From NCBI GenBank assembly GCA_046563655.1, contig CM102286.1, forward strand, positions 558,001 to 622,000: a stretch of 64,000 nucleotides of DNA, given 5' to 3'. The position numbers were made by a program, and so were the translations under genes. This DNA comes from Yuukianura sp. NJ FZ-2021 (taxonomy: Eukaryota). Of this stretch, positions 34,901 through 63,534 are shown one piece after another; the stretch's first letter is position 1; every line of letters begins with the position of its first letter. The notes beneath the pieces are model-generated. The model was not told the DNA's origin. It ran no database searches and saw nothing but the letters and a program-made list of their open reading frames with translations.

Positions 34901-37900
34901 TCATCGCCATAGTTTCTTCACCAATCCAGGCAACAAGAGATTTCAATTTCCACTTCCGGCAGATTCAAAATGAAAAAAAAGTTCCCACTTCTTCAAAATG
35001 CTAATTTTATTTTCCCCCATTCTCATCTCAAGTCAAAAACTCAACTCTCAAAAGTCAAAGAGAACTCAGCTCTCGAAAAGTTCTGAATATTTATAAGCAC
35101 AGTTTCTCCACTACTCAAGTGCGATTCCATTTCTAAAGTTTTACTTTGCACCTACCATGCTAGAAAGCGTTTAGTTCAACGTTAGGTTAACCAAAAGCCC
35201 GGGAAATTTTTAGAAAGACAAAATTTCAAAATTTGACACTTGCGGAAATGATTGTTTTGGTTTTTTGAAACAAACGGAAGTTCATCCAGGAAAATCCCCG
35301 CTGTGAAAAAAGTGCCATACAAAGAAAAAAAAATTTTTTTGTTCAATTTTCAAAAATCTATTTTTGCCAGTTTGAAACTTCAGTTTGGTAGAATATTTTG
35401 TTCTCGGAGCTTGGTAGGCTAACTTAACCTAACAATTTAGGTGAATTGAGTATATTTGTATATAAATCTATGAATATATAATATAAATCTATAAATGTAA
35501 ATATATATATTTGAGAGTGGTTGGTAGTTAGAAGTGGATTTTGAGCATCTGGATGATGGTGAAAATTGGAGGGGTGGAATTGGTTGGTTGTTAAATTGTT
35601 GGAGCTTCTCAATCCAGGACCCCAATCTGCCCAACTCTGCTTCTCTTTTGTTACAAATTGAGTTGACAGCGGGAGTTTGGTCACACATTTCAAATGCCCG
35701 GAACTGGGCGTGATTTTGATGCAAATGAAGGGAACTTTAGACAAGAGGGACATTTTACAGACAGTTGGACTTTTAAACAGTTCGAACAAGAAACAAGGAG
35801 AAAGGACCAGAAAATTAAACGGAATTAATCAGCAGGAGAAAGCAGGATTTCAACAATTTAATTTACTCAAATGAAGATTTCGACATGCTGAAAAAATTTA
35901 AATCGGAACAAAGCAAAACTTTTCTTTTTCAACAAGAAATTGTTAATTTCATTTCCTACTTTACAACTTTTTCATTGCTTTTCCATTTAAAAGTGAAAAA
36001 AAAGTTTTATATATTTAGCTTTCAAAACTTTTCTTCTCAAAAGATTTGAAATTAAACAAATGTTCTCCCATATCCAATTGAAAACCAACTCAAAAAATAT
36101 AAAAGCATTAAAAAGTTTTGCAACTTTTCCACTCTAGTCAACTTTCACATTTCATTAAAATTAGTTTTCGAAATTTCTTTTCTGAAATTTCAAAGAATGA
36201 GGAAACCTTTCAAAAAACAAAGCCATGTAAATTAAAATTTTCAAATTAATTTTCAATTCTACCTACAAGAACAAAGAAAGCAGTTGCCCGCCAATCAGCT
36301 TTGAGAGAAAGCTAAACACAGGACGGGGAGAAAATTCAAATTTTGAAAAGTTGAAAGTTGAAGCACAAAATCAATCATTTCCGCCAATTTGGTTTTGATT
36401 CTGAACTTATTCATTTTGTTTTCAATTTTGAAATTTCCTTCTGCCTTGTTTTGACCTGGAAAAAATTGAAGTGGAAAAATGTGTTGACCCCTTCTCGTGA
36501 GCCCCCTTTAATGCTTGGTCCAATTCAAAATCTTGAATGGAATCAACCTCCTGCTGTTTGTGCTTAGTAACGACCGTAGTTGAGCATAATAGACACATTT
36601 CATCTTCCGAAAGTTTAAATTTTCCCTCACTTTTGTCATAAAGATGAAAATGCAGGAAGTAACTACTGCTGGTTTCGAGTAACAAGAGAAAGATCATCTG
36701 TTCCTCCCTGGGTTCAAAGAAACGGAATAAATAATAGACTTTTGTTAGGGTTTAAGGGTACGCAGGGTTAGTTTAAGGGTACATAGGTTAGGCTAAGGGT
36801 ACAACAAAAGAATAAGAATTAAGGGCCATTGTCAAGTACTTTTTGGAAAAGTTGGCAGCATCCAAAATAAGAGTCAATTGAGATGAGAATTTGGGAACAA
36901 AGAAAATTTTGTGGGGTTTTGGAACGGAACAGTTGATTGGTGCAATATTTTCATTCTGAACAATTCTTCTCAAAACCACTTTCAAAAGCAAACAATTTCC
37001 ACACAAATTTTGAAATTTTCATTTTTCAAAAGGATTTGAAAAAAACATTCTGGAAAATTGGTCTGACATTTCTGGAATTAGTTTACGACATGATGACCCA
37101 GTAATAAATAAAATAAATAAACCAGTAAACTAGTATAATAAATTTTTAGTATAACGTGTAAATAAATCACTGAAAATTTGAATGTCGCTCCTTTTGTGAA
37201 CTCTGTAAAACAATTCATCAAAAACAGGTTTTTTAAAAGAAGCGGTCCAATTTAAATTTCGTTTTTGAAAAAAAAAAAGTAGTTTAAATTTTTAACAACG
37301 TATCATCACTTTCCTTAAAAGGACAAAATGATACTTCCAATACCAAAATGGATGTTTTACAATAACAGTAATTGATTGATTCAAAATTTTGAATTTCTTT
37401 AAATTTTGAAAGTTTATTTTTTGGTATAGTGTTTTTGAGTTCCTGCTCCTTAAAGGCTCCAAGAGCCCTTAGTCCTCCTGTCATCACCTGATGATTCATT
37501 TCTTTCAAAAATCTACTTTTCTTGGCATCTTTCCTAAACCTAATGGTCTTAACCCATAAACCTAGCACAACCTCACTAATAACCAGAAAAAGTTTTCAAA
37601 ATTTTATTTTTTGAAAAAATAATGTAGAAGACAGTCTCTCGGGAGAGGTTTTTTGAAATATTAGAAAGTTAAGAAGTGCCACCATATGTTGCACCAGAGC
37701 TCAAACTTCTAAGGGGGGAGAACAGGCCCTGGAATTCAGTTTGAAGTTTTTGGAAAATATAAGTTATTAAGTGCTGATTGAAATATTTCCATACAAGGGA
37801 ACCGGGAAATTTCGAAAATTACTTCTGGTGGGTCTTCCTTTTTTTGAAAAATAGTTTAACACAAATCCTTTTAGCACTGAAAAATAGTTACTCTCTCCAG

Positions 37901-38736
37901 CTTCTTCCAAAATGAAAAAAAAATAAAGTTCAAAGACTTCTCACCCTGAAGCACTTTCAAAACAAAAGCGAAACTGGTTTTCAATTTAAACACAAACTAG
38001 AAGTCGTTTGATAAGTCAGCTGACATGACACCTACATCAAGACCCTAATTACAAAAGTTTTAATTACTATTTATCAATTAGCAATGACTCATTTTCAAAA
38101 AGGAAAGTTTAAAAAAACGAGGCTACCCAAATTCAGTAGTGAAACTTTTTTGAAAAGTGGAATTTGATTAATGAGATACAAAATACGACATGTTGGAAAA
38201 TGAGGTGCAGAATCTCCCCCCATATTGTTAAATTGAGAAATAATATTTATGCTGTCAAAAATGAATGATGAATTGGTAGAGTCCAGATACACTTAACATC
38301 CCATCCATCTCAATTCTAGACAGATTTGAATATGTTTAAAAATTTAAACACAACCGCCCTAGAGGCGGCACTTTTAAATTTCAAAACTAGCTTGGGAACA
38401 TGATCTCATCAGTCATCACAAATTAGTGATGCAAGATGCATGTTGAGGAAATGGGTTTGAAGACATGCGGTCAATGTCAAAGGTCATGAGCAGTTTCAGA
38501 GGACATTAGACAGATACATGTCATCAAGCAACTTGAAACATAACGAAATGCACAATTTCAAGATAACTGAAATTTGTGCTTTTATAGTTGAATGTTGTGT
38601 TTGTTATTTGTTATGTTTGGTTTTTCTTACCTAGTAACCTCTTGACCTCGTCCACTCCAATGTATAAGTTAAAGGATCCTTCGATTCCACACAAAGCACT
38701 TAGCAACACAAAAACCGAAATCCAAAAACTTGCCAT
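28972..38736 (-). CDS. RYK: RYK/Derailed/Doughnut-family Wnt receptor (WIF domain, TM, pseudokinase)
   Basis: Eleven exons (approximately 38736-38631, 34408-34281, 33816-33571, 33392-33071, 32789-32529, 32340-32226, 31890-31731, 30302-30159, 29737-29578, 29468-29331, 29082-28972). WIF motifs LYYVREG and LKRRRIC, a TM helix, kinase motifs EGSFAKIY, VIVKT, HRDVAARN, DSALVRDLFP (DFG replaced), RPIKW and QPLNCPDEL, and a C-terminal YV* PDZ-type end. Confidence 0.93.
31472..31572 (+). other. tRNA-derived element (SINE head or tRNA pseudogene) in a RYK intron
   Basis: A box/D-arm TAGCTCAAGGGTTAGAGC (31492) and B box GGTTCGAATCCC (31533-31544), followed by a T-run. No clean anticodon or acceptor stem. 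Flanked by the inverted GTGCAGAA/TTCTGCAC. Confidence 0.6.
32813..32910. repeat. 30-bp tandem repeat (~3 copies), intronic in RYK
   Basis: CATTCCACATCATC.TTCCACATTTGAGAA repeated. Confidence 0.8.
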
Positions 38737-42754: not shown

Positions 42755-44046
42755 CTACTGTGACTCAAGGAGGAGTGTGATGACCCAACCTGATGCAGAT
42801 TTGAAAACGCCCAACGTCGTAGCATTGCTGAGAGTCATCCAAGGACCAACGTGGAACGCCATTGGTCGGAGAGATCTGACGAAAGCCTTGTCGTGTTTTG
42901 ATTGGTGCTTGGACTCCCGCACTGACCGAGCGTAGTTCATAGATGCCTCTGCGATTCTTGTAGTATAGCGACCAATCAGAATGATGGTAACGGCCACCCC
43001 TACGGTTGCCATGGCTAATGCTACAATTACGCTGATGGTGACGACACGCCAGAGTGTCACAGAGGCGTAGACTAGCAGCACGAGGGTAACCGTTGCAGAG
43101 ATACAAATAAGCGGCGTTAGGCTATTGACTACAGCTGACTCAAGACAGGCGTGGTACAAATGATACGCTCTTGTGTTCAATTGCAACTTTCTGTCAGTAG
43201 ATGGCGCCGTTGTTCCATTTCTAAATTAAATGTCAAATTCCAAAATTCCTGAAAGTCAAAATTTTAAAATCTTAATACTTTTAAAAAGTTACCGAACATT
43301 GAGGTTCATCCATTTGACAATGCTGTTGGGATAGATGAGGAATGCCAATGACATCGTGTAGAATAACACCATGTCAGGTACGATGTGGCATGTAACTGCA
43401 ACGGCAAATGCGAAGAGATGTTTTGGAATGAATACGCGCAGAATCCAAGTGATGTGGACACAGAGGTCAAGGTACAAGTGGACAGCAGGGGTCAACAAGG
43501 TCAAGAAAAAAATACATCCGAAGGCCACCAAAATTAGCACCGCCACCAGTCCACGACTGTCCACATTCATTTGGTTCAGTTTATGAACTGTCACTGCCGA
43601 ATCAAGCCAAATAAGTTTCGTAATTCTGATTAAAATTTAATAAATGACAAAAATGTTTTTTTTTTTCATGTTGGCTTACTTTGATTTTGGTTGAGAGCAA
43701 AGTAGGAATTGCATATGAAGGAAATTTGTTGTTGCCTTGAAGGAATTGCAACGACGATGCGCATGATCAGTGTTGCCGATAGACCGCAAATTATAACTAG
43801 TGCCATAATTTTTTCATAAGTCGGAATAGGCTGGACAATGACCAAGGTCAAAATAGTGTACAAAATGAATTGAAGTTTCGTAAAAATTGAAACTGTCGAA
43901 ACAAGAGTAAAGAAATCCCGAAAATATGTGGACTGGATTAGCCGCAATTGTTTTGTTTTTTGGTTCCATTCAAATGGAGCACAACCCAAAAAATTTCCAA
44001 TTTTGACTGCAACGGCAATAATTCTAAAGGTATTGTCTGAAATCAT
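42755..44046 (-). CDS. Gustatory/odorant-receptor-like 7TM chemoreceptor (~377 aa)
   Basis: Exons 44046-43680, 43593-43293 and 43220-42755 are in frame. Multiple TM helices, N-terminal GCAPFEWN and C-terminal RSLRPMAFHVG...GWVITLLL. Confidence 0.7.
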
Positions 44047-44787: not shown

Positions 44788-45519
44788 ATGGAGTCGTGGA
44801 TTTTTCTGACTCTGCTTTTGGCTGGGTCGTCTGGAGTCCAAGTCGTCCAAGGTTCTTTGTCACTCGACAATGAATCAGAACTGAGAGAGGCACAGGCTGC
44901 GCTTTTCAATTCCAATTCAAACCAAGGATGGTAAAAACACAACAAAAGTTTATAATTTTTGAAATTTTTCATTTTTTTATGAAATTTTAATAAATTTTAG
45001 GGTACTTTTGGATTATACTGGACCGTCAACAGTTCGTTTTTCTAACGCCGGAGAAGGCACTACCTCTGAATTTGTCGATAGGCTAGAAGGCGAGTAAACT
45101 CTGTTTCAACTTTACCTTCAAAATTTTTAATTCTCACTTCCAAATTTTTTTTTCCATTTTAGATGACCAAGTTCAGTATGTGTTGGTGCGTTTGCCGATT
45201 CAAGGAAAGCCAAAACGGGACATCTTTATTGAATGGATTGGTAAGAGTTGAATGACCTTTGACCTCTTGTTTCCGATGACGAATGTTCTTTTAAAACTGT
45301 GAATTTTTTGAGTGTAAATTTACTTTTACCGTAACTCTTCCATTTGTAGGACCATCCGTTGGCATTATAGAGAAGGGGAAGAAATCAGGGTGGCTGGGCG
45401 ATGCGCAGTCGATACTTCAACCATTTCATGCTGCTGTGACAGTACTCAACCGGGACAATTTAAACGATGAAACTTTGGCAGAAAAGTCAAATCCGTCTGG
45501 GTCCATGGTCATCGACTAA
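44788..45519 (+). CDS. Secreted ADF-H/coactosin-like protein (159 aa)
   Basis: Exons 44788-44930, 45001-45089 (GC donor), 45163-45240 and 45350-45519. Signal MESWIFLTLLLAGSSG, then GWVLLDY...GEG..EFVDRLEDDQVQYVLVR...DIFIEWIGPSVGIIEKGK, the coactosin/drebrin-type ADF-H pattern. Confidence 0.8.
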
Positions 45520-46374
45520 ATTTTGAAAATACCAACGTCTCCCGCCAGTCTCAACTAATTTAAACTAATTTTTCAACTTCATAATCATTTTGCATTCGGA
45601 AAATAAAAATTCTTCAAAATTAAAACACATTCAAAAAAATTCGTGAGGTCCATACATTTTTTTCATCTTTCGTTCTATTGGTTTCCATTGGTCGTTTATT
45701 GGTTCATTTTTCGTTCTTTTTTTCCCCAAAAGTTTCACAAAATTTGTGAAACTGAACGTTGGTCTTACTAATTCGTAAGAAACTGTTAAAAATTCTCAAA
45801 AGTGTCAATTTCTGTTCAAAAATTTTCTTCTTCACTTGTATTTTCCACAACAGTTTTTGAAACAAAGGGGATTGGATCCACCATGTAAAAGTTTTTCAAC
45901 AAAAACCTATTATTCGATTTTAAAAAGGTTTAAAATTTTAGGGATGATTTCATGTTCGAGGCTTTTACAGTTTTTCACATCTTAAAATTTTAACACAATT
46001 TGAAACAAGAATTCAAAAATGTTTAAGCCCCATCACCTGTGCTTTCAATTTGATTGTCCTTTTCGCTTTTTGTCTAGACTACTTCACATAAAGGTTTGAA
46101 ATTCTGAATTTAGCTTTAAGTACCGCAAATCTTTCAGAAATAGCTTCCGTTTTCTCACCTCCATTTTCAAAATGTTTTTGGAATTATGAAAAGGTCGATG
46201 CACTTTGAGGATGCTAATTGAACTTTCAAACCGTTTCGTTTCCCGTTCTAAACACGTACGATTTGGTATATAAGAGGAGCGGTGAAGACTGGACTTTATT
46301 CAATCCGAATTCAAAAATTTTCTCAACTACGTTTTTCAATTCTGCGGTTTTTTGAAACTTTTTCTGAAACCAAA

Positions 46375-48029
46375 ATGCTTGCAAAAATTATTTTTGTTGG
46401 TTTGTTTTTACAATGTCTGGCAACCGCCACTGAAGTTTCTGCTAAAGGTAAAGAAAAAATTCTGAAGTATTTGCAAATTCAAGTAAAATTTCAGTTTTTC
46501 AAAAAAAAAACTTAAAATGTTTGTAGAATCTGTGCAAGCCCCATCCCCAGCTAAAACTGAAGTTCCAGTTGCTGTTGAAGTCAAAGGTAAAAAAAAAACA
46601 ATTGATTGCTTTTTTCAAAAATTGTCAAAAGTAAAACTTTCAAAATTTTAATGTTTTCAAAAATTTTTTTCCAGAAACCGAGGAAAAGGAAACGCTTGAA
46701 ACTGCTGAAACTAAAGAAACCGCTTCCGGTGCTGAGCGTACACACGGCAGTTTCCTCCTGAACATTCTTCAAGGTCATCGGCCTCAAAAACCAACCGACT
46801 TAACTCAAAATCAACAAGATTTTGGCGCCAAAATTCAAACCGAAGACGAACAAAATTACTCGCAAGACTTTTTCGTCGTTACTGCCATCTTCAACCCAGC
46901 TTCCTACCAGTCTCGCTACGCCCTCTACCAGGACTTTGCCAAACACATTGAAGAAAGCGGTGCTCAACTGATCACAATCGAAGCCATTTTCCCCAGTTTA
47001 GGTCAAACTGAGTTCAAGGTCACTCAGAAAGACAATCCACTTCACTTTCAACTCACTTCCGATTCGGTTTATTGGGTCAAAGAAGATTTGATCAACGTTG
47101 CAGTTTCTCGACTTCCACCAAATGCACGCTGGGTGGCATGGCTTGATGCTGACATTTACTTTCACCATCCAAACTGGATAGCAGAAACAGTTTCTGCACT
47201 GGAGAGACACACCGTTGTTCAAATGTTCAAATACGCTCACTTTTTAAACGCCGAAGGCGAAATTCTTCGAACAGACTACTCTTTTGGCTACTCTTTGGTT
47301 CATGGTAAGCCGTTGCTTGGATTTAAACAAGATGATTGGTACCCGCATCCAGGCTATGGCTGGGCCATGTCGGTTGAAAATTTCAAAAAAATTGGCGGGC
47401 TTCCGGCCTACGACATAGTTGGAGGTGGAGACCTCTACTTTGCCTACACTTTGGTCAATCACATGTCAGATGTCATTGAAAAAGACTTTGATGAAGACTA
47501 CAAACAACGAATGAGAGAAGAGTCAGAGAAAACGTACAAACTACTTGTCGACATTTCTGCTGCCGATGAAAAGACTGTCGCCGGATTTGTTCCGGTTTCA
47601 ATCAGTCATCGGTGGCATGGAGCCAGAAAAGACCGAGGGTATGTCGACCGACTCAACATTTTGATTGCTCATGACTTCAATTACTTCAAAGACATGACCC
47701 GAGAAAGTACCGGTTTGCTTCGGTTCGGAAACGATACGGTTTCACTGCAACAAGACGTTCGTTGTTACTTTGAAAACCGGAATGAAGATGACATGAAAGC
47801 AGAGAAGTCGGAATGTCATTCTAACGACTACTTGTTGTACCTTAAGAGTTTGGTCGTGAGTCCAACGGCTAATGCTAATGCTGTTTGCAACTGCGGACAA
47901 CAACCACATTCTAACGCTGAACCAGGGCACTACTATGGTAAACAATACACTTACTACACTACGCAGAATTACCACAATGTCCTCGACACCAAGGCTTTGG
48001 AAGCAATCGTCAAACTTATCAAAAACTAA
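46375..48029 (+). CDS. Secreted GT-A-fold glycosyltransferase-like protein (~495 aa), bacterial/giant-virus-like family
   Basis: Exons 46375-46447 (signal), 46527-46586 and 46675-48029 are in frame. Motifs FNPASYQSRY, WVKEDLIN, VAWLDADI (DxD), VVQMF, HPGYGWA, GGGD, HRWHG and YFENRNED. TATA box at ~46268. Confidence 0.8.
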
Positions 48030-48370
48030 TTAACTTTTAGCAATTCAGTTTAATCTGATATTTTTAACAATTTTTCAAAATTTTCCAAATATTTATTTGA
48101 CGTGTTTATCATTTATTGTTTTTTATTTTTTTGTAATATTTATGAATTTCTATTCACTTGAAACATTTTTAAGAAATAAACTTCTTGAATTCTAACGCAG
48201 ATGGCGCCGATCTTTTTTAAGCAGATTTAAATTTTATTTCTTTTTCACACTTTTCATTTTTCGTTTAATTTTTCGTAATTTTGCTTTTCAATTTTTTGGA
48301 TTAATAAATTTTTTAATTAGGTTAGCATCACAATGATTTTTCGTCAGAATTGTCGTGACGTTTTCCCGCG

Positions 48371-48630
48371 TCACTTTCTTCCAACGCAAACCCATCTGCC
48401 GTCTTGCCATTTGCAAGTGGGCGGAGTGTTGCATCCGGTACAACCATTTTGGTCACATCGGCAACCTTTAAAATTTTAAATTTTTTAATTGTGGTTTTTG
48501 GAATTAAGAAATTTCATGCTTTCAGAGTGTAAGTTTGACCTGTGACCTTACCTTCAACTTCGTAGACAACTGCAGCCACAACAATAAGAGCAAGGACAAA
48601 CAAAACTAAAAAACGGTGTACAAATGACAT
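48371..48630 (-). CDS. Secreted 6-Cys peptide A (57-aa precursor; predicted mature CRCDQNGCTGCNTPPTCKWQDGRWVCV-amide)
   Basis: Exons 48630-48552 (signal) and 48465-48371, phase-1 GT-AG intron, ends GRK*. TATA at ~48721. A conserved paralog lies at 54867-55132. Confidence 0.88.
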
Positions 48631-48762
48631 CGTGTAGTTTGAATTTGAGTTTTGTAGATTTAAAATTACAAAAATGTAAATATCACAATTGGATTAACTA
48701 GTTTGAATTTTGGAAGTGTATTTATATGAAGCGCTTTTCCGGTTTGAGGTAGTTTAGTGTAG

Positions 48763-48772
48763 TGGTTTTCCC
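48763..48772 (-). promoter_or_regulatory. Dorsal/NF-kB-type site GGGAAAACCA ~40 bp upstream of the peptide A TATA box
   Basis: TGGTTTTCCC on + matches GGGWWWWCCM on -. Function is not demonstrated. Confidence 0.4.
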
Positions 48773-48983
48773 GCTTTTAAACACACTTTTAAAAATGGCA
48801 AAAGTTTCCTGTATGTTACTTGGAACTTCCGGTTAGTTTAAATTTCTTAAGACTTTTATACAACTGTAGTCGTACTGTACAAAAATATTTTTTAGCTTAA
48901 TTTATATCTAAGGTTGTGTTAAATAAATATGGTTTAGTTAAAGTGATTCACAAATTATTTCCATTTTGATGAATCTGCAACAC

Positions 48984-49367
48984 TCACGGAAAGATGAAGT
49001 CTCCTGGATACATTCCTGTCATTTAAAAACTTTTTTAGAAAATCACTTTGTTAACAAATTAGTTTTGACCTGAGTTTTGAAATTTCAACATTACGTTTTC
49101 GATTTCGATGGCTGTCCATGAACGGATCTTTGTTTTCAACAACCCATGCATTTTCTTCTATTTCGCTGTAAATGATTGGATCCAACACCTCAAAAGATTA
49201 GTTAAATGTTTTCACCTTTTTGAAAAAAACTGAATCCAACAAAGACTTTAATAATTTAAAAACCGCTAAAAACTTACCACTGGAAAATTGTTAAACAACC
49301 TGCGAAAACTTTCTACATTTGTCATAACCAAACTAAGAAATCCAAAAACTAGGAATATTTTGACCAT
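48984..49367 (-). CDS. Small secreted precursor (68 aa) with RNRKR site and C-terminal MYPGDFIFP
   Basis: Exons 49367-49278, 49229-49216 (14-nt micro-exon), 49165-49095 and 49015-48984, all GT-AG and in frame. Signal MVKIFLVFGFLSLVMTNVES. Confidence 0.6.
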
Positions 49368-50363
49368 TATGTAAAAAATTTAAAGTTATGATAAAATTTT
49401 TTCCAAAACCATTATGAAAAACTTATGTAACTTATGGAAACTTTTGTAATTAATTAAAAGTAGTTTCCAAATACAATCCTCTAATTTCTTGTTTCAACAA
49501 TAGAATTACTGGTCCCTTCTGCTCGAGTTTTATTTCAAACGAAGTAAAATGACGTTCGCTTAGCACACGAACAATTTTAACAATAGATAATTTAAATTTA
49601 AGACAATGGTTAACCTTGAAAATTTAGCCATGCAGTTAGTAACTGTGATTCACATGGTAATGTGGGTCAGGAAGTCAAATTCATCGAAAAAAAATTCGGA
49701 TTCCACTTAAAGAGTTGTGAAATTGTTCACTTACTCATAATTTGTTTTACTGATTTGATTAAATCTAACCAGACTGTACAAATTTTGAAATTACGAGCCA
49801 AAAAAAGATAATTTTTTAGAACTTGGATACAATCACAATAGCGTTGGATATCAACACTCTAAACAGCGTCATTTCCTGTCACCTACTCAAAATATGTTTA
49901 ACCATTTCTAAAATTCAAGTGCACACAACAACTAAACCCCAAAATCTCGAAATTCAAATCAAAATCCAAAATTTCGAATCCAAAAATGCGTTCTGCATAA
50001 AACGAAGTGTTTCTAAAACGAATTGAATTTTGACCATGGAATGAGTGAATGTTGTTTAGAGTTGGATTTTTGTGGACCATATGATAGATTACAGAATCTG
50101 TAGATAAAGATTAGAAGACTAAAGTTATGTAGGTACATAATATTTTTCAAAACATGACTAATTTTTTGGACGTGACAGATACAACAGTTTTTAGTGTAAT
50201 TTCGAATTATCAGTTGTCAATCACAAAGTTTGGCTGCGGTGAAGAATTAAAAGTTAGCAAAGAAATAAACTATAAAAGTGAAAGTCATTTTACAACAAAA
50301 ATTCCAAACTTGTGCCAACTTCAAAAAAAACTGTTTTAAAAAGAATTTCCAAAAATAAAAACA

Positions 50364-50832
50364 ATGGCCATCAAGTCCACCATCTTCATTCTTGCTCTCG
50401 TTTCTATCCTGGGCTCTGGTTACGGTAACTTAACATTTAAAAACTGTTCGGCTTAGTTCAAAAACCTTCCTTCTAAATTGAGTAAATATTGAATTAATTT
50501 TAAACTGAATTGATTCAATAGCTTTGCAATGCTACCAGTGTTTCTTCAACTGCTCCGACGTTGCGACCAATACGCCCAAGCAAACGTGCATCGGTAACAC
50601 TGATGATGGATGGGGCTGCGCCAAAACTTTTGTTATTGTTAACGGTGAGCACAAGGCAAGGACCCGATCATGCAGTTTCGTAAGTGACGACATGCTCAGA
50701 TGGTGCGGTGAAGAAGACGGCATTGGAACTTGCCACTGCAGGGGAGACTTGTGCAACTCTGCTTCATCCGTAACGCTCAATGTCGCCATGGCCCTTGCAC
50801 CACTCCTCCCCTGTCTTAAATACTACTTCTAA
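50364..50832 (+). CDS. Ly6/uPAR three-finger (quiver-like) protein, probably GPI-anchored, copy 1
   Basis: Signal exon 50364-50424 plus exon 50522-50832. LQCYQC...CHCRGDLCNSA followed by a hydrophobic tail. Confidence 0.88.
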
Positions 50833-51299
50833 AATAGTTCACTCACAACTTCAAGAAATACAACACACTGCTGTTATTCACTTAAAAAATGATGAAAATA
50901 TAAAATTTGTATATGTTGGAATGAATAAAACAATAAAAATTTTCCCACCGGACATCATCTCACAGACGTGTTTCTACTATAATCTCAAATTGTTCAATAA
51001 CCTTTTCAACCCACATTTTGTGGGTGTAAGTGTTAAAAGAATTTAGATATTAAAAAAAATTGAATAGACGAGATATACATTACATTGCTGTGGAACCGAA
51101 CAATTCATACAACGATGTTTCTTAAAAATATTAGGTTTTTTAAAGCAGAGTTTTTTGTGTCAGTGCTTTACTACGGAAAAATTGGGTAACCCTGAGGGCA
51201 AGGTTCCTATAGCAACAAAATAGAATTAACAGTTTAGGCAATAAGTCCCGATAGCAACAAAATAGAATTAACAGGTTAGGAATTTGAGGAATTTTTTGA

Positions 51300-51450
51300 T
51301 CTGCTGATGTGTTTACGTTGCTGATGTGTTTGACATGCTTATGTCTTTCCTGCTTATGTGTTTCGTGCTGATGTGTTTGCATTGCTTATGTCTTTCTTGC
51401 TTATGTGTTTGGTGCTGATGTCTTTTCTGCTTATGTCTTTTTTCTGATGT
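51300..51450. repeat. Short-period (~16-18 bp) tandem array GCT(G/T)ATGT(G/C)TTT
   Basis: About nine degenerate units. It produces the spurious ORF 51140-51382. Confidence 0.8.
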
Positions 51451-52154
51451 AATGGCGTGCTTTGGATTCAATCACAATAGCCTCGGATAGCAAAATTCTA
51501 ACGGCGATCCGTATAGTAAATCGGTCAGGAAGCCAAATCTCCGAAAAAAATCGGTTTATTCCTGATGCTCTTTCAGGAAAGAAAGTTTCTGCTACTCATT
51601 TAATTTAATTCACGTCCATATTGTACTTTTAAAATTATGCGTGATAAAAACAAGATATTTGTTCTTATAAATGGAGACCACAATTAAACGATTGAGATCA
51701 AAATTATATCTAGTCTTTTCCTGACGCGTTGCACGAAATTCTACAAACGTACATATTCTAGTAATTTTCTAACTTCAAATATGCAAAGAAAAAAATTGGC
51801 AAAAAAATGTTTTTTTAAAAAACGGGCATTTGCGCTGGTGACAATAATGGTCCTGAAACGAGTTCAATTTGCAATCAAGGATATTGTTGGACTTACGCTA
51901 AGTTGGATTTCCGTTAGCAATGTTAGATTAGATAAAAATAAAAGACAAGTTTCGTTTATCAATTTTTCGGAAAACTACTATTTTGCACTTCAGGCTTACA
52001 TTTCGGGGCCTAATCGCTGAGATAAGGTCAGACGGCTGAATTTTACGAGTCGCTTTAGAGATGGATATAAATGCAAATCATTTCCGTAAATCTGGAATAC
52101 ACGTCCCGTTATATCATTGTTCAAAAACTAAAGCAATAAAGACCCTCCTCAACA

Positions 52155-52609
52155 ATGACCATCAGGTTCACCATCCTCCTTTTGGCATTATTCGCTCTCC
52201 TTGGCTCCAGCTACGGTAGGGTAACACAACAAAGTTTCATATTTAATCCGACTTTGCAAATGTGTGTATTTATTAACTAAGTTTTTTCCGAACAGGACTG
52301 CAATGCTACCTTTGCTCCTCAGGACAATGTCCGGAAGTACCAACTGATGCCACTGTCCATACTTGTGCAATGGCCACTGAAGGCTGGGGCTGCTGGAAAA
52401 GTTTCCGAGAAACTGACGACGGTGTCGAGACGGGTATAAGCCGTGCGTGCGGTATGGTACTTGACCAATTGGTAGACGAGTGCGAAACATCATTTGGCAT
52501 TACAACTTGTTACTGCCGAGGAGATTTATGCAACAGTGCTTCATCCGTGACTCTCAATGTCGCTATGGCAATTGCACCACTCCTTGCATGTCTTAAATAC
52601 TACTTGTAA
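52155..52609 (+). CDS. Ly6/uPAR three-finger protein, probably GPI-anchored, copy 2
   Basis: Signal exon 52155-52215 plus exon 52296-52609. LQCYLC...CYCRGDLCNSASSVTLNVAMA, with a tail nearly identical to copy 1. Confidence 0.88.
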
Positions 52610-53289
52610 AAATAATTCTACTATAATAAACCACTACAACCAACCCAAATCCATTATTAGTCTGTTGTAATTTACCTAAAAAATGTAAATAATAAAAGAG
52701 GCATACCTATAGGGATCAATAAAACAAAAAAGAATGAATAGACTTGAATTATATCATCGTATTCAACACAATCTTGTAGTTAGTAGGCATAAAATTTGAG
52801 TGAAGCTTTCATTTTCCAAAGTCGAGTTTATTGTGTCAATGCTTTACAGGGGAAATGCTGGTGACCTTGAGGCTCAATTTTCGGTTGTATTTTTGATGCG
52901 CAATTTTATTTATCAAACTGTCATAAGTTACACCAATTACTTTGTAGATAGAAGGGAATAAAATTCCAAAATCAGTTCTTTTACTATGAACTACACTTCT
53001 ATCAAAATTTGGTGGTAAAGTGCTAAAAAAAAACTTTGGAAGTTTCCGAAGACCTACTATGAGTTCTTTTATTTTTCTATAACAAAAATCCTGAAACATT
53101 AGAGCATAGAAATAATTACGAAAAATAAGAAAGTTGAGCTTGGAATTGATGTGAGAATTACTTGGCTACGGAGATTCAGACGTTTTCAGAAATATTTCCC
53201 GTTTTTTAGGGTAACCACACAAGGTAAATAGAATATTACTAGGTAGTGCGGATAGAAAGTTTGTTTGGTTGCCATGTGGAAAAAAAAAA

Positions 53290-53430
53290 TGACGTCACCC
53301 GCTGAAAAATACCGGAATTCTGCGTATTAATGATGGTGTCCTATAGAAACCCGCAACCCGCATCTTGTTTACATAGATGCCAGCGGGTTAAAATATCACG
53401 ATTACGGTATTTTTTCAGCTGGTGACGTCA
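53290..53430. repeat. Inverted repeat with ~29-bp arms carrying TGACGTCA
   Basis: TGACGTCACCCGCTGAAAAATACCGGAAT versus ATTACGGTATTTTTTCAGCTGGTGACGTCA. Confidence 0.65.
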
Positions 53431-53741
53431 CAAACAAAAAATTGCGTTGGTTGCTAATGGTGCTGATTGCAGGGGGCTGGTATTGAGCTCGATTTTTGTA
53501 ACAAAAGTCCAAAAAATAGAATGTGCAAACTGTTACGGAAAACGAAAATTTCACCTTGGAATTGACTTGAAAGTTACTTAGCAAAGGACAGAGTTCTGTA
53601 ATTCATATATCCCACAGTTTCCAATATACTTTCACGTTTTTAGAAGAAGATTATTAACTTCTTATTATAAAAATAATTATTTTCAACATAAAAGATTTTG
53701 TTTTTATTTCACAAAGTATTTGGGCTGTTAGTGTATGATGT

Positions 53742-54218
53742 TTAGTTGATATATCTGACTCTGATTCTAATGTTACTGTCTCCACGCTTTCCAAATGTGA
53801 GTGTGCTTTGTTCACTGCGATCACTCAGAAATTGGGCCACAGTGCTTTCGATTTCACCAATTGTGTCATCCCGCTCCAGAGTCTCTTCGTCGTACAAATG
53901 AAACTTGATTCTGCAATTGTCTCGAACGTTGGCAAACTAAACATGTCCAAAATTTTCAAATAATTTTTCAAAGCTTCAGTTTTTTTTTTTGAATCTTACC
54001 CGATGCGACCAGTTCCAAACGGGATTGAGGCTACTGCGGATCGTCTGTGTTCTTTCTTTCTGATTACACACAGTGACACTCATGTAAGCATCAGTTGAAA
54101 ACGTATCCATCCGTCTCACTCTCCCACCAATAACTTCCACTAGCAAATCTCTACCAAATGCACCGTAGATGTTGCAGGCAAACAACAACGCTCCAAAGAT
54201 CAAAATTTTGGAATCCAT
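53742..54218 (-). CDS. Secreted stand-alone C2-domain protein (137 aa)
   Basis: Exons 54218-54000 and 53936-53742. Signal MDSKILIFGALLFACNIYGAFG, then C2 motifs MDTFSTDAY, RTQTIRSSLNPVWN and LYDEETLERDDTIGE. Confidence 0.85.
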
Positions 54219-54866
54219 TTTTAAATTTTTAGACACCAAAGAGCAAATGAAGAAACCTTTTGTGAAAAATTTGGAAAGAGACGTGGGTTTTATTTAAGAT
54301 GTTTTGAGTGAGTGTAAATTAGTTGTTTAACTAACCCTGATTATGACCAATTAACATTTGAATTCCAAGAACAAAAGCTTTAGCACAAAGTTGAGTAGAA
54401 TTTTAAGTGTGCGAAATAAATTAGCTTAAATTAACGTCAATTGACCACTCACAAGTAAGCTGACAGCTAAAAAAACAAGTTCTCGTTGAACTTGGAATTT
54501 TTAAAAAATTTTACATAAAAATTCGTTTAACACATTCGATTCCAAAAAAAAAAACATAATTCGACTATGAAACACGAAATTCTTAGAACGTAATTAACAC
54601 TGGAAATTCAAGTTTATATTAACTCTGTTTATTTGTTTCACCATTTTTTTAAACATTAGTGAAAGGTTGAAACATTTTTTGGAAATAAACTACATAAATT
54701 TTAACCCAGCCCGCGTCAAGCAGATTTAAATTTTAGGCTTATTTTTCATTTTGTTTAGTTTTTCATAATTTTCTTTTCAAAGTTTTGGATTAGTAAATTT
54801 TTAATTTTTGAATCAGTTAGCATTACAGTGATTTTGCTTGAGGAAATGTTGCAAAATTTTCCCGCT

Positions 54867-55132
54867 TCACTTTCTGCCAACGCAAGTCCATCTCCCGTTT
54901 GACCAACTACAAGATGGCGGAGTGTTGCATCCGGTACAACCATTTTGGTCACATTGGCACTGACCTTTGAAATTTTAAATTTTGAAATATTGGTTTTTGT
55001 AATTCTAAGAAATTTCATTATTTGAGAATGTAAGTTTGACCTATGACCTTTACCTTCTACTTCGTAGACCACTGAAGTCAAAACAACAAGAGCCACAACA
55101 AATAAAACTAAAAATCGGTGTACAAATGACAT
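54867..55132 (-). CDS. Secreted 6-Cys peptide B (58-aa precursor; predicted mature QCQCDQNGCTGCNTPPSCSWSNGRWTCV-amide)
   Basis: Exons 55132-55054 and 54964-54867, with the same intron position as peptide A. Ends GRK*. TATA at ~55223. Confidence 0.88.
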
Positions 55133-55591: not shown

Positions 55592-57132
55592 CTACATTCT
55601 TTGTATTTTGAATTTTCCTTTCCAACTAACAAGGAATGACATCGTGATGTTTGCTAAAACATGGAGACTAACAAAGCTATTACGTCGAAATTCAATAAAA
55701 TTCGTCACTTTGATCGTCAGAGGGCGCAAAGTACGCCACTTTCTGCCAAGGACTTTGTTTGTGCCAAAGTTAGTTTCACCCCACGTCAGAAATTGAACTC
55801 CTCTTTGGTAAAATCCGGAGACCAACTGCAAAAACATTACTTCGAGTGTTGCGTAAGCAAATAGTATAGCAGAAGCTACCACATAAAGTGAAGAAGTTGT
55901 GTTTTCTACTTTGACTAGAACAAAAGTAAGCAAACAATTTGCAAGGGTCGACACCACAAAGGCGTAAGTGGCAAGCATTTGGTATGCTTCCAGGGCAACT
56001 CGATGAGTCAAGGTGAATTCAATGTATCTCGAATATGCAATTCGCGCGATGTGTAGTTTCAACCTCCAGCCCAAGTCCGAATTCAGTTTGGCTCTACGCA
56101 AAACATAAATTTTTAAGCTAATTTGTAGTATTTTCTGAAATCTATGCATGCATAACTTTTTGATGTATAACATATTCATGCACAACATATTCATACATAA
56201 GATTACCATAGCATATCCTTGCATTGCATATTTTTTGTCTTACATTAAATGCCGTATTGCTTCTGCAACAAAGGTCATGTACTCGCCCCATAAGATAGTT
56301 TGAACTTGTAATATTGTTGTACACACAACGTTGAAATGTCCATCAAGGAACAGAAGAAAACCAAGCACAAATTTTGAAACTTTTTTTGAAAAAGTTGGAT
56401 ATAGCACAAGGATTTGTTCTGGATCCAAAACAGACTGAAAGAGTTGAATTCCAGCAGCAATATACAGCCCTACCATAAGCAAATCCTGTAACAATACTCC
56501 GTATTGAACGGATTTATTCTTCCCGTTTGCACGACCTAAAATTTCAAACAAAAGCTTTCACGAATAAAGGGGAAGGCCCAAAGTCCATAAGAAAGCGTCC
56601 TTGGTGGTATTTGGATGAAATTTTTACCAGTTGTTAGGGCCAATACTGGCATCATATTTGCAAATTTTCAGCCCCCCAGAAACGATAGGTCAGGGGTAAC
56701 TCGGGGTCAAAGGTCACTATGTCATCTTATGACGACCCCATGCAAGTAGCATATCGTTGGAACGGGCTTGGTCTCCTGATTCAGAAAATGTATATATGTT
56801 GATGTCTACGACGTAAGGCGACAAAGTTACTGCATATAACAAGTCGCAGTTGAAAATTGGAGATCGAGTGCGACATGGGTTTCAAAATTAAAGTCGCCGT
56901 AACTTTTCCCGGTAATTAGTTCGAATCTTTTCAAAATTTTGTTCCACTTAAACGGTAAAATTCTCCAAACATTTCCAATCCCAATGATGAGCTGAAGGCG
57001 TTGCAAACTCGTTCGGTTTACGTACAAGTGCCTCAAAATTTTAAGTTTTTGTACAAATTTAGATTGAAATGAACACCTCCAACGTCTACTTTTTTGATGA
57101 AATTCACTTTTTCGCTTCAGTTTGGTTTCCAT
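55592..57132 (-). pseudogene. GR/OR-like 7TM paralog, first exon apparently truncated by a repeat-like insertion
   Basis: Exons 56535-56244 and 56093-55592 are intact with the same intron phases as 42755-44046 (RTLRPLTIKV tail). Exon 1 (GNVWRILPFKWN) stops at 56827 with no obvious phase-1 donor, and ~56550-56860 looks like a non-coding repeat. Confidence 0.55.
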
Positions 57133-58162: not shown

Positions 58163-61100
58163 ATGCGTGTGTGTAGGTGCGGCAATATTTTTTGTAATGT
58201 GAAGATACTTTTTGTCTTATTTTGGATGAATCTCTGGATCAACCTTCATAATACTGCCGGAGTCAACGCCAATTTCAATTTTTATTTGGATAGGCGGGAA
58301 TTTCAAAAATTGCATGGTAAGAACAGAGTAAAGAATCATAGCATTTCAATCGCACGAAAACAATAAGCGCCAATTCAGAATGTTTCCTTGGTTCATTGTT
58401 CCCAAACTTATGAAAATAGCGTCATTTTGGTTAAAGGAAAAACTAAACCTTTTAAATTAATTTTAACTTTTGTGGTTTTCGCGGTGAAAAAAAATTTACG
58501 ACGAATTAAATTTCATGAAAAATGGAAATTCACGTCATTTTTTTTTGTTTTTCTTGAAGTTCTTGAAACATGTAGGGATTTGTAAAAAGCGAGAGAGATC
58601 TCAGCATGACTTTGTTTATAACTTCCGGAATTCGGGTGAAAGTTAAATGAGCTTCCTTCAGAACAGACTTTCCAAATGGGATGTAATTCTACGAAGATTG
58701 GAAGAAACGGGTTACGAAGCATAGCCATCACCATGACAACGCCCAGAACTCCTGCTGATGTCATTTACTTTCTCCACCCAACTTTCACCCTTTCCCAGCC
58801 CATGAACACAAATGTCAAATACCTTGTCTTACTCCTGTTGTTGACATTTTTTTATTATACTTTAGCCGTCTTATTGCCCTCCCAAGACTCCTGCTGCTCC
58901 AAAACTATGATACTTTTACTTTTTTGCTTTTACTTTCTCTTTTCTGCCTCAAACCTGTTTCTTAAACCTAACTAGCCTAACATAACCTAACTTAGAGTAT
59001 ATAATTCTTATCACATTTGCCAACCACACTTCACTTCCTTGTGACCTCACCACGTCCAACTTTTAGTTCCAGAGAAAGCAAGCGAGAGAAAGTAAAAACA
59101 AGAAATTTGGAAGCTTGTTTCTGCTTCTTACGGTTTCTTAAGTTTCTTCACCACCAACCAATTTCTCCGAAATTGTGAAAGTTGTGAAAACCTTGTTTTC
59201 TTTTGTGAAAACTTACTTTCTTGTCCATTATTTTGAACTGCACTCGAGCTTTCCAGTTAGCACGTTCGGAAGTAAAAAGCTTGTTTGAGAAAGTAAAATG
59301 AGTGAAAAGCTTCCTTCTACTTGATTATGTCACACTTTCTTAGGAAAAAAAGAAAAAGTAGACTAAGTTTTTCTCGTTTCTCGGAGATTACTTTCTCTTG
59401 TGTTTGCAGACTTCAGTCTAGAAAAAGTGAAATTAACAGGCTTGAGTTTTTATTTGTTTTGTTTTCTTATAATTTGAGTTCTGAATCATTTTCCATTTCG
59501 GAGAAATCTCATCTAAAAGTTTGCAGTTTGCCTTGGAGCGACAGAGTTGTCACGTTTTGATAAAGTATTGCTCAGAGTGACTACAAATCCAATTAAAGTC
59601 GATGCGGCAAGAGCTATTTGATGAGATTTCATTTAACATTTTCTCAAGTTTCAACTTGGAAGTAGAAGCAAAAGCTCCTTTTCCTCTTCGGTGGCTACAA
59701 TAATTTGAAGCGGAGATTTAATTGGATTATGACACAAAAATCAAATTAATATGCTCAACAGTGAACTCTCGCTTTTAAGCAAGAGAGACCAAAAGATTGA
59801 GCTGTGCGCCACGCGTCTCTAAAGTTTCGCTGAAATCATGAAAGTGTGAAACTGGAATTATGAAAGTTCTTGATGAAAGTTTATTAAGCGAAGGCAGGTT
59901 TCGAAATAATTTTTGTAACTTTTAATGCGACAGAAGCGTTTGAAGTGTCAGAGAGTTTGGATTTCAACATTTGAATTCTTTCACAACAAAAACTTCAAAT
60001 GTGCAAGAAAATAATCAAAAAGTGAAATTTCTGTGGGTGGTTCAGAGTTAATTAGAAATTTTTATAATGATGCTATCTTTTTTCATTTTTGTTATCGAAA
60101 TTATCTTTTCAATTTTCGAAGTGAATCTTATCTGCTTTCATTTTTGGAGTCAAGGTTTGTTGAGTTCTTTCTCTTTTTTTTGAAAAATAGAAAAATGCTT
60201 TGACCTGCATAAAATGTGGTTTGAACTTTTAAATTTAGTTGTCAGGGCATGACAGTTGAAGAAAGAAAGTCGGAAGTACGGTGGGTGAGTGCAGTTAGGG
60301 AATGAAATTGAGTTCAAAAGTGAAAACTGGCGGAAAATAATTTTCTGTCCAGAACAAAGCGGAGCACAACTCTAATTGGTATTCTGCTCGCAAAGAAACT
60401 AAGGGCAAACCGTCTTTCCTTCTGCTTTCACCGCTTTTTCCTTGTAAGATGAAACTAGTTCTGTTTTTACCTTTACGTTTAACACAGAACGAGTAAAAAA
60501 AAAAAAACTTTGTGCCCTCCAAATCCAATCTCAAACGAAATAGAAAAACGTTCTCATTTTCTTTTGTCTTTGTAGGTACAAAATTTCTGAAAAGAAAAGT
60601 GGTAGGGCAGGAGGAATTGAATTTCGAGTCCACTTTGGGCTATTTCTGCACTTTCACGCCACTTTTACTGAACTTACTTTCACTTAAACTTTGTCTTCAA
60701 CTTTTCCCGGGTTCTTCCTCCGCAATTATCACCTTCTGCCCATAACCACTTTTGGCCATTTAACTTTCTCCACGACTTTAACTTTTTTTTACTAAAACTG
60801 CACACAGGAGACCCATTCACAGTCTCATCATCTTTTTGAAAAAATTTAAAAATTCGCTCTTTTTAGCACTTTGGCTCCTCATTCGATTTTTTTTCAAATT
60901 ATTTGATGTAAAAGTTTCACGAGCTAGAAATTTTGAAATTCAGGTTTTCTGAGTCATATGTTGGATTCAGAAAAATTTTAAAAAGCGAAACTTTTTTTTA
61001 CTTTGTCAGCTGCTTTTTCCCTTCATTTCAAAATTAAAAGTTTTAATTTTGTGGCCAGAGACGAAGCATGTAGGGGCGGTTTGATCGCTTTTTGTTTGAA

Positions 61101-62326
61101 GTTTGGATTAGTTTTTGTTAGGATTCGTGAAAATCCTGTTCAGCCGGAAATTTAAATAGCGCTTCATTCAAAATTCAAATGGAAAGCGGGCAGGAAAAGA
61201 AGAACAATGGTGAAAGCTGCTTTCTCCAGCACAACTCTAATCCGCTTCCCCAACTGCCCTTAATTGATTCAAATAAATGCACAGCTTATTTTCATTAATC
61301 CATATGAATGAGTTCACAGCCCAACCTTCAACATGCTCAAAAACAGTTTCAAAATTTCCCAAGAAAATGTTCAGTTTCAAACTTTTAATTTACATTTAAC
61401 ATTTTTTACTTTTCCTGTCCACATTGTCTAGTTTCTTTTTACTTTCATGTTCATTGTCTACAAAACAAGACCGTAAAACATGAGAAATTGAAAAAAAAGT
61501 CGAAAATTTTAAAAATTGTTTGTTTCCCGCCTTAACTAAAATTGATAGTTTTGCTAACTTGACTTTTTGTCAGTGGTGTTTTGGTCTTCTAGGAATTCCA
61601 AAGTTATTCATGTTGAGCTCAACATGTTTAAGTTAGTTTTACTTTAGGTTTACATTAGGTTTTTGGAAGAAAAGGACTTGTTAAATTATTCACACGTTTT
61701 CTAAAGAAAATCGGCCTCCTGGGAGAGTCAGTTGGAGGTGTGCTTACAAAACGTTTTTGCTTAGACACTTTCCTCGTGGTTTCCCCATTTCCTCGCTTCA
61801 GTGTAATCATTTCCTCAAATTCCCATTATTAAAGTTGATCGAAATTCTGTTCACTCCTTTTCCATTTTCTCCTGTTTACATTCCGTTTTTCAAATACACC
61901 TCCAGGCTCATCGGAAATGGAAAACCACTTGCTCCCGCTCCTAAATTATTAATTTCACAAAACCCTCCCAGCAAAAACTCACTTTTCAAAATTCCCTCCC
62001 TTTTCGGTATTGATTAAAATCAGTTTTTCAATTTTAATCGATTTTGAACTCCAAAAACACGAAATAGTTTCGAGGTCGCTTTCTCCTCAAGAATTTGCGT
62101 CAGATATAAAATAACTTTAATTTTGATGAAATGCTTTAAAACTTACTTGACATGACCTTTGACCTTTGAAATGACCTTTGACTTTTTGAATTTCCTAGGA
62201 ATCTCTTCAGATATTTACTACGTTCGAGAGGGCGTGGTCAACGAGTACGCCACTTCATTTCTGGTGACGGTGCCCGCAGAAGTGGATGATCTCAACTTTT
62301 CATGGCAAGCTCTCACCAAACGACCA
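58163..62326 (+). CDS. Second RYK/Derailed-family paralog, first two coding exons (continues past the window)
   Basis: Exon 58163-58316 (signal, then NFNFYLDRREFQKLHG) and exon 62199-62326 (ISSDIYYVREGVVNEYATSFLVTVPAEVDDLNFSWQ). Exon 2 is 128 nt, the same as in the first RYK gene. Confidence 0.85.
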
Positions 62327-63534
62327 GTAAGTTTCACTTTTCAAAAAAAAACTGAAAGTTTTCAAAGTCAAATGCACAAAACAAACAAACTTTGTTTCCG
62401 CGGCTCTTTTTTCGAAAGGGGAGAAAACTTATTAAAACTTTGTTTCGCCCCAGGTTAGGCAGCAGAAGAAGTAAAAGTTGAAGATCCGTTTCTAATTACA
62501 AAACAGCAGGAAACGCTGTTGCTAAGCAACAACAAGCTTTTACTTGCTTCCTCTTTTCTTTAAAGTGAGTATGCGCAGCTCCATTCATCTTAATTAAAAG
62601 TGACACGATTAATTTTGGTGAAAGACTTTTCGATTGAGAGGGAGAAAGTGGGATTTTCATTGCCAATGTTTCTATTCAAGAAACTTTTTATTTGAAAAGA
62701 AGGACATTGATTGGACAGTCACAGTAGGTGGGCCAGTTGCCAAAATTAGTTTTTTTCAGAAAACTCTTCAAAAAAGACTTTTTTGAAATGAAAAACCAAA
62801 AATTGAAAAAGTCATTTCGGGTGGATCTGGAGCCAATTTGAGTTTAGAGTAATTTTGAGTCTGGCGACTTCCAGCAGTGACATTATTATATTCGAGGACA
62901 AAGGAAAGAGAAAATTGATGATGACGGTGGGGCGGTGGTGGGGCAGAGTTATGGTGGGGCGTGGTGGGGCGAAAGCAAAGTTGGGCATGTCAAGTTTTTT
63001 AAGTTTTGTCTTTCCATTGTTTTCAAAATTTTGAGACAAGTTTTATAGAAACAAAGAGATGACAAATTTAAGCTTCGGTGTCTGTCCTGCCCTGATAACT
63101 TTTTCTGATAAATGGACGTGACAAAAAGGCTCCGTGTATTTTTTTTAGAAAAAAAAGTTTTTAAAAACTCACTTTTTTGAAAATGATAGACTCCTGGAGG
63201 AAGAAACTAAAAATTTGAAACTTTCCCGGGATTTTGGTGTAGGCTAGTCCGAGATTTGGGGAAGGGGATTTATGCCTAGTAATTAGTCACTAGAAAAGTG
63301 GTAGTTTTTTTTTAATTTTAGTGTTTGAACACCACTTTCAAATTTTTCTCCCAGCCAAAACCATAACTTTTAAAATGTCACACTCTTTTCTCCTTCAAAA
63401 TCACATTCTAAGCCACACTTATTTTTAATTATACTCAAGCACGCACATAACCTAACAATTTTGAAAATAACTACAACGATTTTGACATTTTCAAAATCAA
63501 AACAAAACCTCTTTCTCAAAAATTGAGTTCAAGG

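Follow-up and report, generated by a model that had tools for sequence, protein, structure and literature searches.

Eight closely packed genes with signal-peptide-like starts between two WIF-receptor genes of the springtail Yuukianura sp., a possible accreted secretory patch

Why do eight small genes that all begin like genes for secreted proteins lie side by side in a springtail genome? We examined this in a window of 64,000 nucleotides from Yuukianura sp. NJ FZ-2021 (contig CM102286.1, here C4:558001-622000, of a 98.7-Mb genome in 22 contigs); positions given without a contig are those of the window. The gene island at 44788-55132 had been read, in an original prediction made from the sequence, as a candidate defence or effector cluster. 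The answer we favour, which we regard as about an even bet, is that two head-to-head WIF-receptor genes enclose a patch that grew by accretion and consists of secretory genes restricted to certain lineages. Such a patch is probably microbe-facing. We infer the expression and every function of the island genes discussed below.

The island holds eight intron-containing genes with open frames, called g1 to g8 in their order along the window (Table 1). Their introns are 63-109 nt long and AT-rich, with GT-AG splice sites and a single GC-AG exception, the second intron of g1. Each gene has a signal-peptide-like start, as originally claimed. These calls follow our own hydropathy rule, a hydrophobic N-terminal segment with a small-residue cleavage-type site, and the segment is present in all eight models (best 9-residue mean 2.5-3.7). 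From these starts we infer that the products are secreted. A codon model trained on 86 long open reading frames (ORFs) preferred the annotated frame in six of the eight genes; an alternative frame scored about equally in both cysteine (Cys) peptides. Pfam or homologs support a domain or fold for the ADF-H, QVR/Ly6, C2 and GT-A members. No further coding exon was scored in the gaps between the genes, and an Rfam scan of 40-60 kb returned no matches. Through two local duplicate pairs, g3 with g8 and g5 with g6, the eight genes amount to six lineages.

Several features of these lineages argue for accretion. They differ in age, with a synonymous divergence (dS) of 0.32 for the Cys pair and 0.91 for the Ly6 pair. 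They also differ in distribution. The signal-bearing form of g2 is found in Folsomia candida and on the metagenome contig L014 as well, yet no named springtail is among the 102 homologs of g1. Paralogs of the C2 gene lie in another mixed patch on contig C7, Ly6/QVR genes are dispersed, with 18 or more matches genome-wide, and no promoter word of 6-8 nt is shared by the island lineages to a greater degree than in random sets. The surroundings are unstable, with a duplicated WIF-transmembrane (TM) gene, an inverted MACPF duplicate and elements resembling miniature inverted-repeat transposable elements (MITEs). L014 is the single contig (one of 32 candidate stretches, 3.8 kb long) that carries a relative with the g2 form. 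None of the other seven genes was matched on it within 1.2 kb upstream or 1.1 kb downstream of the glycosyltransferase (GT) gene, although g1 and g3 lie within these distances in this genome. The missing neighbours weigh against an old fixed module, as far as one short contig can.

An accreted patch would have been built piecemeal by local duplication, the Ly6 pair being older and the Cys pair younger, with the C2 gene arriving as a copy from a dispersed family. Two foreign genes, those for the ADF-H and GT-A proteins, would have been domesticated and would have come to carry introns, a signal peptide and the codon usage of the host. Most genes would keep their own TATA promoter, and a common secretory tissue would probably follow from proximity, with no single pathway linking the genes. 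Judging from the folds, the ADF-H protein may bind extracellular or ingested actin, the C2 protein may bind anionic membranes with calcium, and the GT-A protein may glycosylate in the secretory lumen or bind glycans. The Cys peptides would be disulfide-bonded, amidated effectors and the Ly6 pair ordinary surface proteins.

The most surprising element of the island is g1, an ADF-H protein with a predicted signal peptide. To our knowledge, described ADF-H proteins are cytosolic. The last exon of g1 retrieved three full-length relatives, one of which retrieved 102 homologs among 125 candidates. These come from dictyostelids, Physarum, Nostoc, Nocardia, Rotaria, the fungus gnat Bradysia, the ascomycetes Hirsutella, Thelonectria, Truncatella, Cordyceps and Beauveria, and many unnamed sources. 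Identity to g1 is 58-65% for eight of ten aligned homologs (slime-mould, fungal, bacterial, rotifer and Bradysia) and 37-47% for three diverged ones among the ten (Cordyceps, Beauveria and one Bradysia copy). Single exons of g1 are too short to be scored alone with PF00241; this Pfam model passes its cut-off on the homologs, and the PDB places the family with coactosin and drebrin ADF-H domains. The basic residues of the long ADF-H helix, which we take to be actin-binding, are retained in g1. Most homologs start at a methionine that coincides with the end of the g1 signal peptide. By our rule, eight of the 102 have a signal-like start themselves (four named Bradysia, three unnamed, one doubtful). 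The claim that normally cytosolic folds are sent to secretion here is upheld at the level of prediction; the single foreign gene claimed with it became two.

It is probable that g1 was acquired horizontally from a soil-microbe family, a gene shared with fungus gnats. The gene is single copy in the genome, and its three introns and host-like codon use argue against contamination. The family tree is poorly resolved and does not reject one clade of signal-bearing forms (p-AU 0.76 and 0.87); trees holding these forms together had a higher likelihood than a quick free search. An independent gain of the signal peptide in g1 and Bradysia, hinted at by a first tree, is not supported by this topology test. 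A single origin in animals followed by transfer is as tenable as several origins. The ADF-H subfamily was found at three loci among 185,579 prokaryote species, all lone genes; a prokaryote scan with one query sequence only found no member, and neither did a scan of viral contigs. Its occurrence in three species of actin-free organisms suggests a role outside the cytoskeleton. The three are lone insertions in two Nostoc genomes and one Nocardia genome, where the gene has 58% GC and its surroundings 68%. The bacterial neighbourhoods gave no functional clue.

Likewise, g2 is probably foreign, from a family rich in giant viruses. It is predicted to adopt a GT-A fold with a DxD motif: its model (pLDDT 78.6) matches GT-A structures, several enzymes being tied at a VIA Z of 12-13. 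The closest viral predicted structure is from Yasminevirus (E 3e-30). By sequence, g2 has no solved relative and scores 15.8 bits with PF00535, under the cut-off of 23.3. There are 17 homologs among 4,646 candidates, including an F. candida protein. A viral scan gave 235 stretches, the best at 56% identity on a 439-kb contig. The 80 stretches retained of the 235 yielded 66 ORFs, all 66 with the DxD. A signal-like start was called in one of them and by eye is the first strand of the domain. In the tree, g2 groups with unnamed orthologs (support 95), nested in a clade to which the F. candida protein, one viral copy and a paralog from contig C1 also belong. The copy on L014 is interrupted by an intron and begins with a signal-like exon of its own, so the secreted form appears to predate this species. 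The paralog (C1 ~1543900-1545400) does not join g2 but falls with a giant-virus copy and forms lacking a signal, and is possibly a separate acquisition.

The first exon of g7 scores above the Pfam cut-off for C2 and keeps the acidic calcium-binding loops. Matches by sequence among solved structures are led by a ferlin C2 and include a Munc13 C2. Two signal-bearing paralogs lie on C7; in the Atlas, a C7 paralog is nearest to chordate clusters of 134-137 aa with C2 only (0.94-0.95), those of 137 aa being labelled 'perforin-1-like' (0.95), and its features point towards clusters from fish. A split perforin, made of this free C2 and the MACPF gene at 3.6-4.8 kb, was set aside as speculation. The MACPF gene is 49 kb away, and the ORF list has no MACPF-like frame beside the C7 pair. 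The paralogs sit in a second mixed secretory patch (C7:3892776-3900400, four signal-bearing genes in 7.1 kb), which contains the two signal-plus-C2 genes, a membrane gene, a signal-bearing protein without a Pfam match and a CAP protein. The signal-bearing protein combines cysteine-rich repeats with a bacterial-looking N-terminal part that presumably resembles cell-wall hydrolases.

The Cys peptides g3 and g8 lie within a 570-nt duplicated block (79% identical, 6.5 kb apart) that includes promoter and intron, and the g8 block is flanked by a 140-nt direct repeat. A nonsynonymous divergence (dN) of 0.11, against the dS of 0.32, suggests constraint, although the counts are small. The cysteine spacing is C-x1-C-x4-C-x2-C-x5-C-x8-C. 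The g3 peptide ends in Gly-Arg-Lys, apparently of the amidation type, and after C-terminal processing of this kind the net charges would be +1 and 0. The g8 peptide is modelled with two beta-hairpins (pLDDT 78). A profile search of 1.84 billion representatives gave two hits, both calreticulin-like repeats. No match was found in solved sequences or folds, a negative that carries little weight for a model of 31 residues. The best Atlas match (0.87) is a lead only, and no homolog was found outside the twin pair. The weakest of the eight models is g4, whose last exon is ambiguous. It has three possible ends, all keeping the multibasic site, and lacks both a TATA and a canonical poly(A) signal. It is a single-copy orphan without a Pfam hit.

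Two Ly6 proteins had been proposed, and we agree with that assignment for g5 and g6. Both have an LU-type cysteine domain, and full-length alignments to QVR (PF17064) gave E 0.005 for g5 and 1e-4 for g6, both under the curated cut-off. Their hydrophobic tails make surface anchoring probable, probably by GPI. The pair has a dN of 0.36, with the dS of 0.91, and shares a 40-nt upstream element at 49823 and 51462.

No common switch was detected upstream of these genes. A kB-type site had been proposed and did not hold up: the strict consensus is absent from 44000-55600, and loose matches, found in the island at the Cys pair only, are at chance level (present in 12% of 582 AT-rich control chunks). 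At g3 the match falls beyond the duplicated block and deviates at two positions; at g8 it is within a local repeat. Across the six lineages, no shared 6-, 7- or 8-mer in the 400 nt upstream exceeded random expectation (the null reached the observed value in 72%, 77% and 24% of 200 draws). With 11 tests taken into account, none of kB, STAT, GATA, AP-1, the cAMP response element (CRE) and six other motifs exceeded background. Paired CRE-like words near 53.3-53.4 kb were rejected, being arms of a dispersed palindromic element.

Several observations weigh against a patch that simply accreted. TATA promoters, also part of the original prediction, are borne out. A TATA lies at -170..-40 in six of eight island genes, the background figures being six of 30 for signal-peptide genes and 9% for random stretches; in five island genes it is at -89 to -108 (-96 in g3). 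One 8-mer, picked after the fact, occurs five times on the plus strand (46971, 48327, 48682, 49832, 51471). The 80 grid windows of 10 kb average 0.6 and have two at most, none of them reaching five; two of the island copies belong to the upstream element common to g5 and g6, and one is in coding sequence. No non-secretory gene interrupts the island. The synteny comparison covers a single short contig. The density of secretory genes is about 10 times background and exceeds all 80 grid windows. These were ten-kb windows, evenly spaced at positions fixed before viewing and run with the same detector and a reversed-sequence control. The detector thresholds were tuned on the island after inspection, and the window itself was picked as extreme. 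At the middle setting, the island has eight genes in 11 kb and seven in either 10-kb sub-window, while the grid mean is 0.64-0.68 per 10 kb (reversed sequence 0.06). The grid counts averaged 0.675: 44 windows had none, 21 had one, 14 had two, and one had five, which were false detections within a membrane receptor; none reached seven. The strict setting gave five for the island against a mean of 0.3-0.4, equalled by none of the 80, and the loose setting seven against ~1.0-1.1, with one grid window at six and none at seven. A Poisson estimate puts 7-8 genes in fewer than 0.1 of ~9,900 genome windows (0.07 for seven genes). The excess over other 10-kb windows, which the original prediction had anticipated, weakens once duplicates are collapsed: six lineages are expected in 0.7-1.3 of those windows. 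The two local duplications therefore explain much of the surprise, and the patch still sits at the extreme tail.

That last estimate, together with the choice of an extreme window and the tuned thresholds, is what would make the island a product of chance. It would then be one of the densest spots to be expected where small secreted genes are plentiful, its members sharing no expression. We think this improbable. Membrane-protein false positives inflate the background mean, so that the true tail is thinner, and neither the TATA enrichment nor the lack of non-secretory genes within the block fits it well. A co-regulated defence cluster, in which selection keeps effectors of unrelated kinds (antimicrobial, membrane-binding, actin-binding) together under the control of a single enhancer active in immunity or the gut, would account for both the secretory density and the TATA enrichment. 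By analogy, it would also suit six-cysteine peptides under purifying selection, a c2PRF1-like gene, a giant-virus-type GT and an ADF-H family common to slime moulds, insect-killing fungi and fungus gnats. We nevertheless hold it to be doubtful, given the absence of a strict kB site, loose sites at chance level and the lack of any shared motif. The genes differ in age and source, L014 lacks the neighbours, a second mixed patch exists on C7, and the Cys peptides are nearly neutral (+1, 0) and fit no springtail antimicrobial peptide (AMP) spacing.

If the absence of immune cis-sites is given weight along with the similar TATA positions of five genes, the island might instead serve a gland or matrix (cuticle, egg coat, spermatophore, labial or ventral-tube secretion), its TATA genes being strongly expressed and belonging to one exocrine cell type, with the GT modifying the secretion and the Ly6 pair organising it. 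Matrix building would be a fitting setting for a proprotein, for Ly6 proteins at the surface and for a glycosyltransferase in the lumen. The eight genes include no repetitive structural protein or chitin-binding domain, the ADF-H and C2 proteins have no obvious matrix role, and we consider this quite unlikely. On the boldest reading, a soil hexapod would express these genes jointly as an anti-microbial kit, made partly of captured genes, with the secreted coactosin-type protein at its centre. That protein would move among slime moulds, insect-killing fungi, a few bacteria, rotifers, fungus gnats and springtails, and would act extracellularly on the actin of damaged tissue, food or enemies. The kit would add a perforin-style free C2 domain and an undescribed family of amidated six-cysteine peptides. 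Taken as a whole, we regard this reading as unlikely. The accreted patch of lineage-restricted secretory genes remains the reading we prefer.

The genes around the island match the original description in part. It had placed the block between two RYK paralogs. The left one is RYK-type with kinase exons. The right one has signal, WIF and TM exons, the last running 336 codons to the stop, and no match to the kinase exons of the left gene was found in 57.5-114 kb. A second WIF-TM copy lies ~25-31 kb further on (C4 ~640.7-656.4 kb) and is 87% identical in the TM-tail exon. The WIF-TM gene is a possible Wnt decoy or co-receptor next to a full RYK gene. The description of the two flanking membrane genes as gustatory receptor (GR)-like paralogs was not confirmed. 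The label derives from end motifs only, and a census of those motifs had no power (two hits in real and two in reversed sequence). Single exons gave no Pfam GR hit. A short stretch near the N-terminus is all that aligns between the two genes (27% over 44 aa, E 1e-5), and their C-terminal parts show no significant similarity, making them remote relatives at best. A MACPF-domain gene occurs twice, at 3194-4769 and at C4 ~641.0-642.5 kb, as 87% identical, inverted copies ~80 kb apart, the second within the first intron of the second WIF-TM gene. An element at 40787-41553 has 253-nt terminal inverted repeats of 97% identity and short tandem units; the element at 53220-53480 has copies 90% and 81% identical in two sampled windows. 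The inverted duplicate and these palindromic elements (40.8-41.6 and 53.2-53.5 kb) point to an unstable interval.

Three further loci were noted. At 4915-6291, on the minus strand, a signal peptide and short repeat linker precede frames that we take to be of the protein tyrosine phosphatase type, with no TM seen; this may be another normally cytosolic fold that is secreted. Tandem small secreted precursors with Lys-Arg sites and at least four starts lie at C4 ~667.5-671.8 kb. Transposase-like frames at 23914-24916 presumably resemble CENP-B/DDE types.

Table 1. Genes and elements of the island and its flanks, in window positions; signal peptides are predictions.
Feature	Position	Strand	Remarks
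RYK-type receptor: signal, WIF, TM and kinase exons	28975..38736	-	3' end approximate; transcribed away from island
Left flank multi-pass membrane gene, 378-aa model	42755..44046	-	four weak matches elsewhere in genome
g1: signal peptide and coactosin-type ADF-H, 159 aa	44788..45519	+	four exons: 44788-44930, 45001-45089, 45163-45240, 45350-45519
g2: signal peptide, low-complexity linker and GT-A-fold domain with DxD, 495 aa	46375..48029	+	three exons
g3: Cys-peptide A, 57 aa, signal peptide and 30-residue six-cysteine peptide	48371..48630	-	gene model
g4: orphan precursor, ~71 aa, signal peptide, acidic pro-region and multibasic (furin-type) site	48984..49367	-	
g5: Ly6/QVR-type three-finger protein, 123 aa, hydrophobic C-tail	50364..50832	+	model, hydropathy, QVR match
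g6: Ly6/QVR-type tandem paralog of g5, 124 aa, hydrophobic C-tail	52155..52609	+	
MITE-like dispersed palindromic element between g6 and g7	53220..53480	.	long-hairpin fold
g7: signal peptide and single C2 domain, 137 aa	53742..54218	-	model and Pfam C2
g8: Cys-peptide B, 58 aa, twin of g3	54867..55132	-	duplicated block
Right flank multi-pass membrane gene	55592..57132	-	ORFs; splice model not resolved
WIF-TM gene without detectable kinase exons	58163..64000	+	runs past window; transcribed away from island

How do these genes compare with what has been described? By homology, g1 has the ADF-H fold of coactosin/drebrin-type proteins (PF00241; PDB 1x67, 4liz). Unlike the cytosolic ADF-H proteins, its subfamily is patchy across soil organisms and signal-bearing here and in Bradysia. 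An actin-binding protein with a signal peptide has a reported precedent in the secreted gelsolin of Drosophila. The literature searched, which covered few subscription journals, gave no account of this gene block or of a coactosin-type protein that is secreted. Extracellular actin has been described as an immune factor of insects (PMC4450071). For a different gene, one report proposes a transfer involving springtails, fungus gnats and mites (PMC13389597). If g1 does share a single origin with its fungus-gnat counterparts, it would be one more case beside the springtail-gnat gene exchanges already reported.

The free C2 gene resembles the teleost c2PRF1 genes, which PMC7574235 gives as a signal peptide and one C2 domain in ~135 aa. 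In g7, too, a signal peptide is followed by a single C2 with its calcium ligands kept. It differs in being from an arthropod and in having its best solved-structure matches in ferlin and Munc13, and the likeness is likely convergence. It would extend to arthropods an architecture whose origin and role are open questions in fish. The Cys peptides recall the collembolan AMPs in a precursor of ~57 residues, six cysteines, a short mature peptide and local duplication. Their spacing fits none of the diapausin, Alo and defensin patterns in PMC10051947, and the all-beta model and low charge differ as well. As a small synthesisable scaffold without detected relatives, g3/g8 is of interest in itself. 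The Ly6 pair is like other arthropod Ly6/QVR proteins in its signal peptide, ten-cysteine domain, hydrophobic tail and tandem arrangement, and apart from scores under the PF17064 cut-off it is unremarkable.

Horizontally acquired genes are common in springtails, with glycosyltransferases among the largest classes, in the Folsomia candida (PMC5490193) and Orchesella cincta (PMC4987106) reports. The island agrees with these in having foreign genes with introns amid native genes. It departs from the usual acquisitions in that ADF-H is not a carbohydrate enzyme and the g2 family is richest in giant viruses. Neither the locus tag of the F. candida homolog nor the words 'coactosin' and 'cofilin' were found in three supplementary files searched. 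In Drosophila, small clusters of adjacent, non-homologous, co-expressed genes are reported not to be kept as synteny blocks (PMC3129673, Weber and Hurst 2011). The island is similar in consisting of a few adjacent unrelated genes, and the missing neighbours on L014 fit. It differs from those clusters in that any co-expression is putative, two members are probably foreign and two lineages are orphan. As a whole, the island is a modest case of a known pattern. The better leads, and the novelty, are in its parts: a putatively secreted ADF-H protein, a putatively secreted GT-A protein, a signal-plus-C2 gene and an orphan six-cysteine pair.

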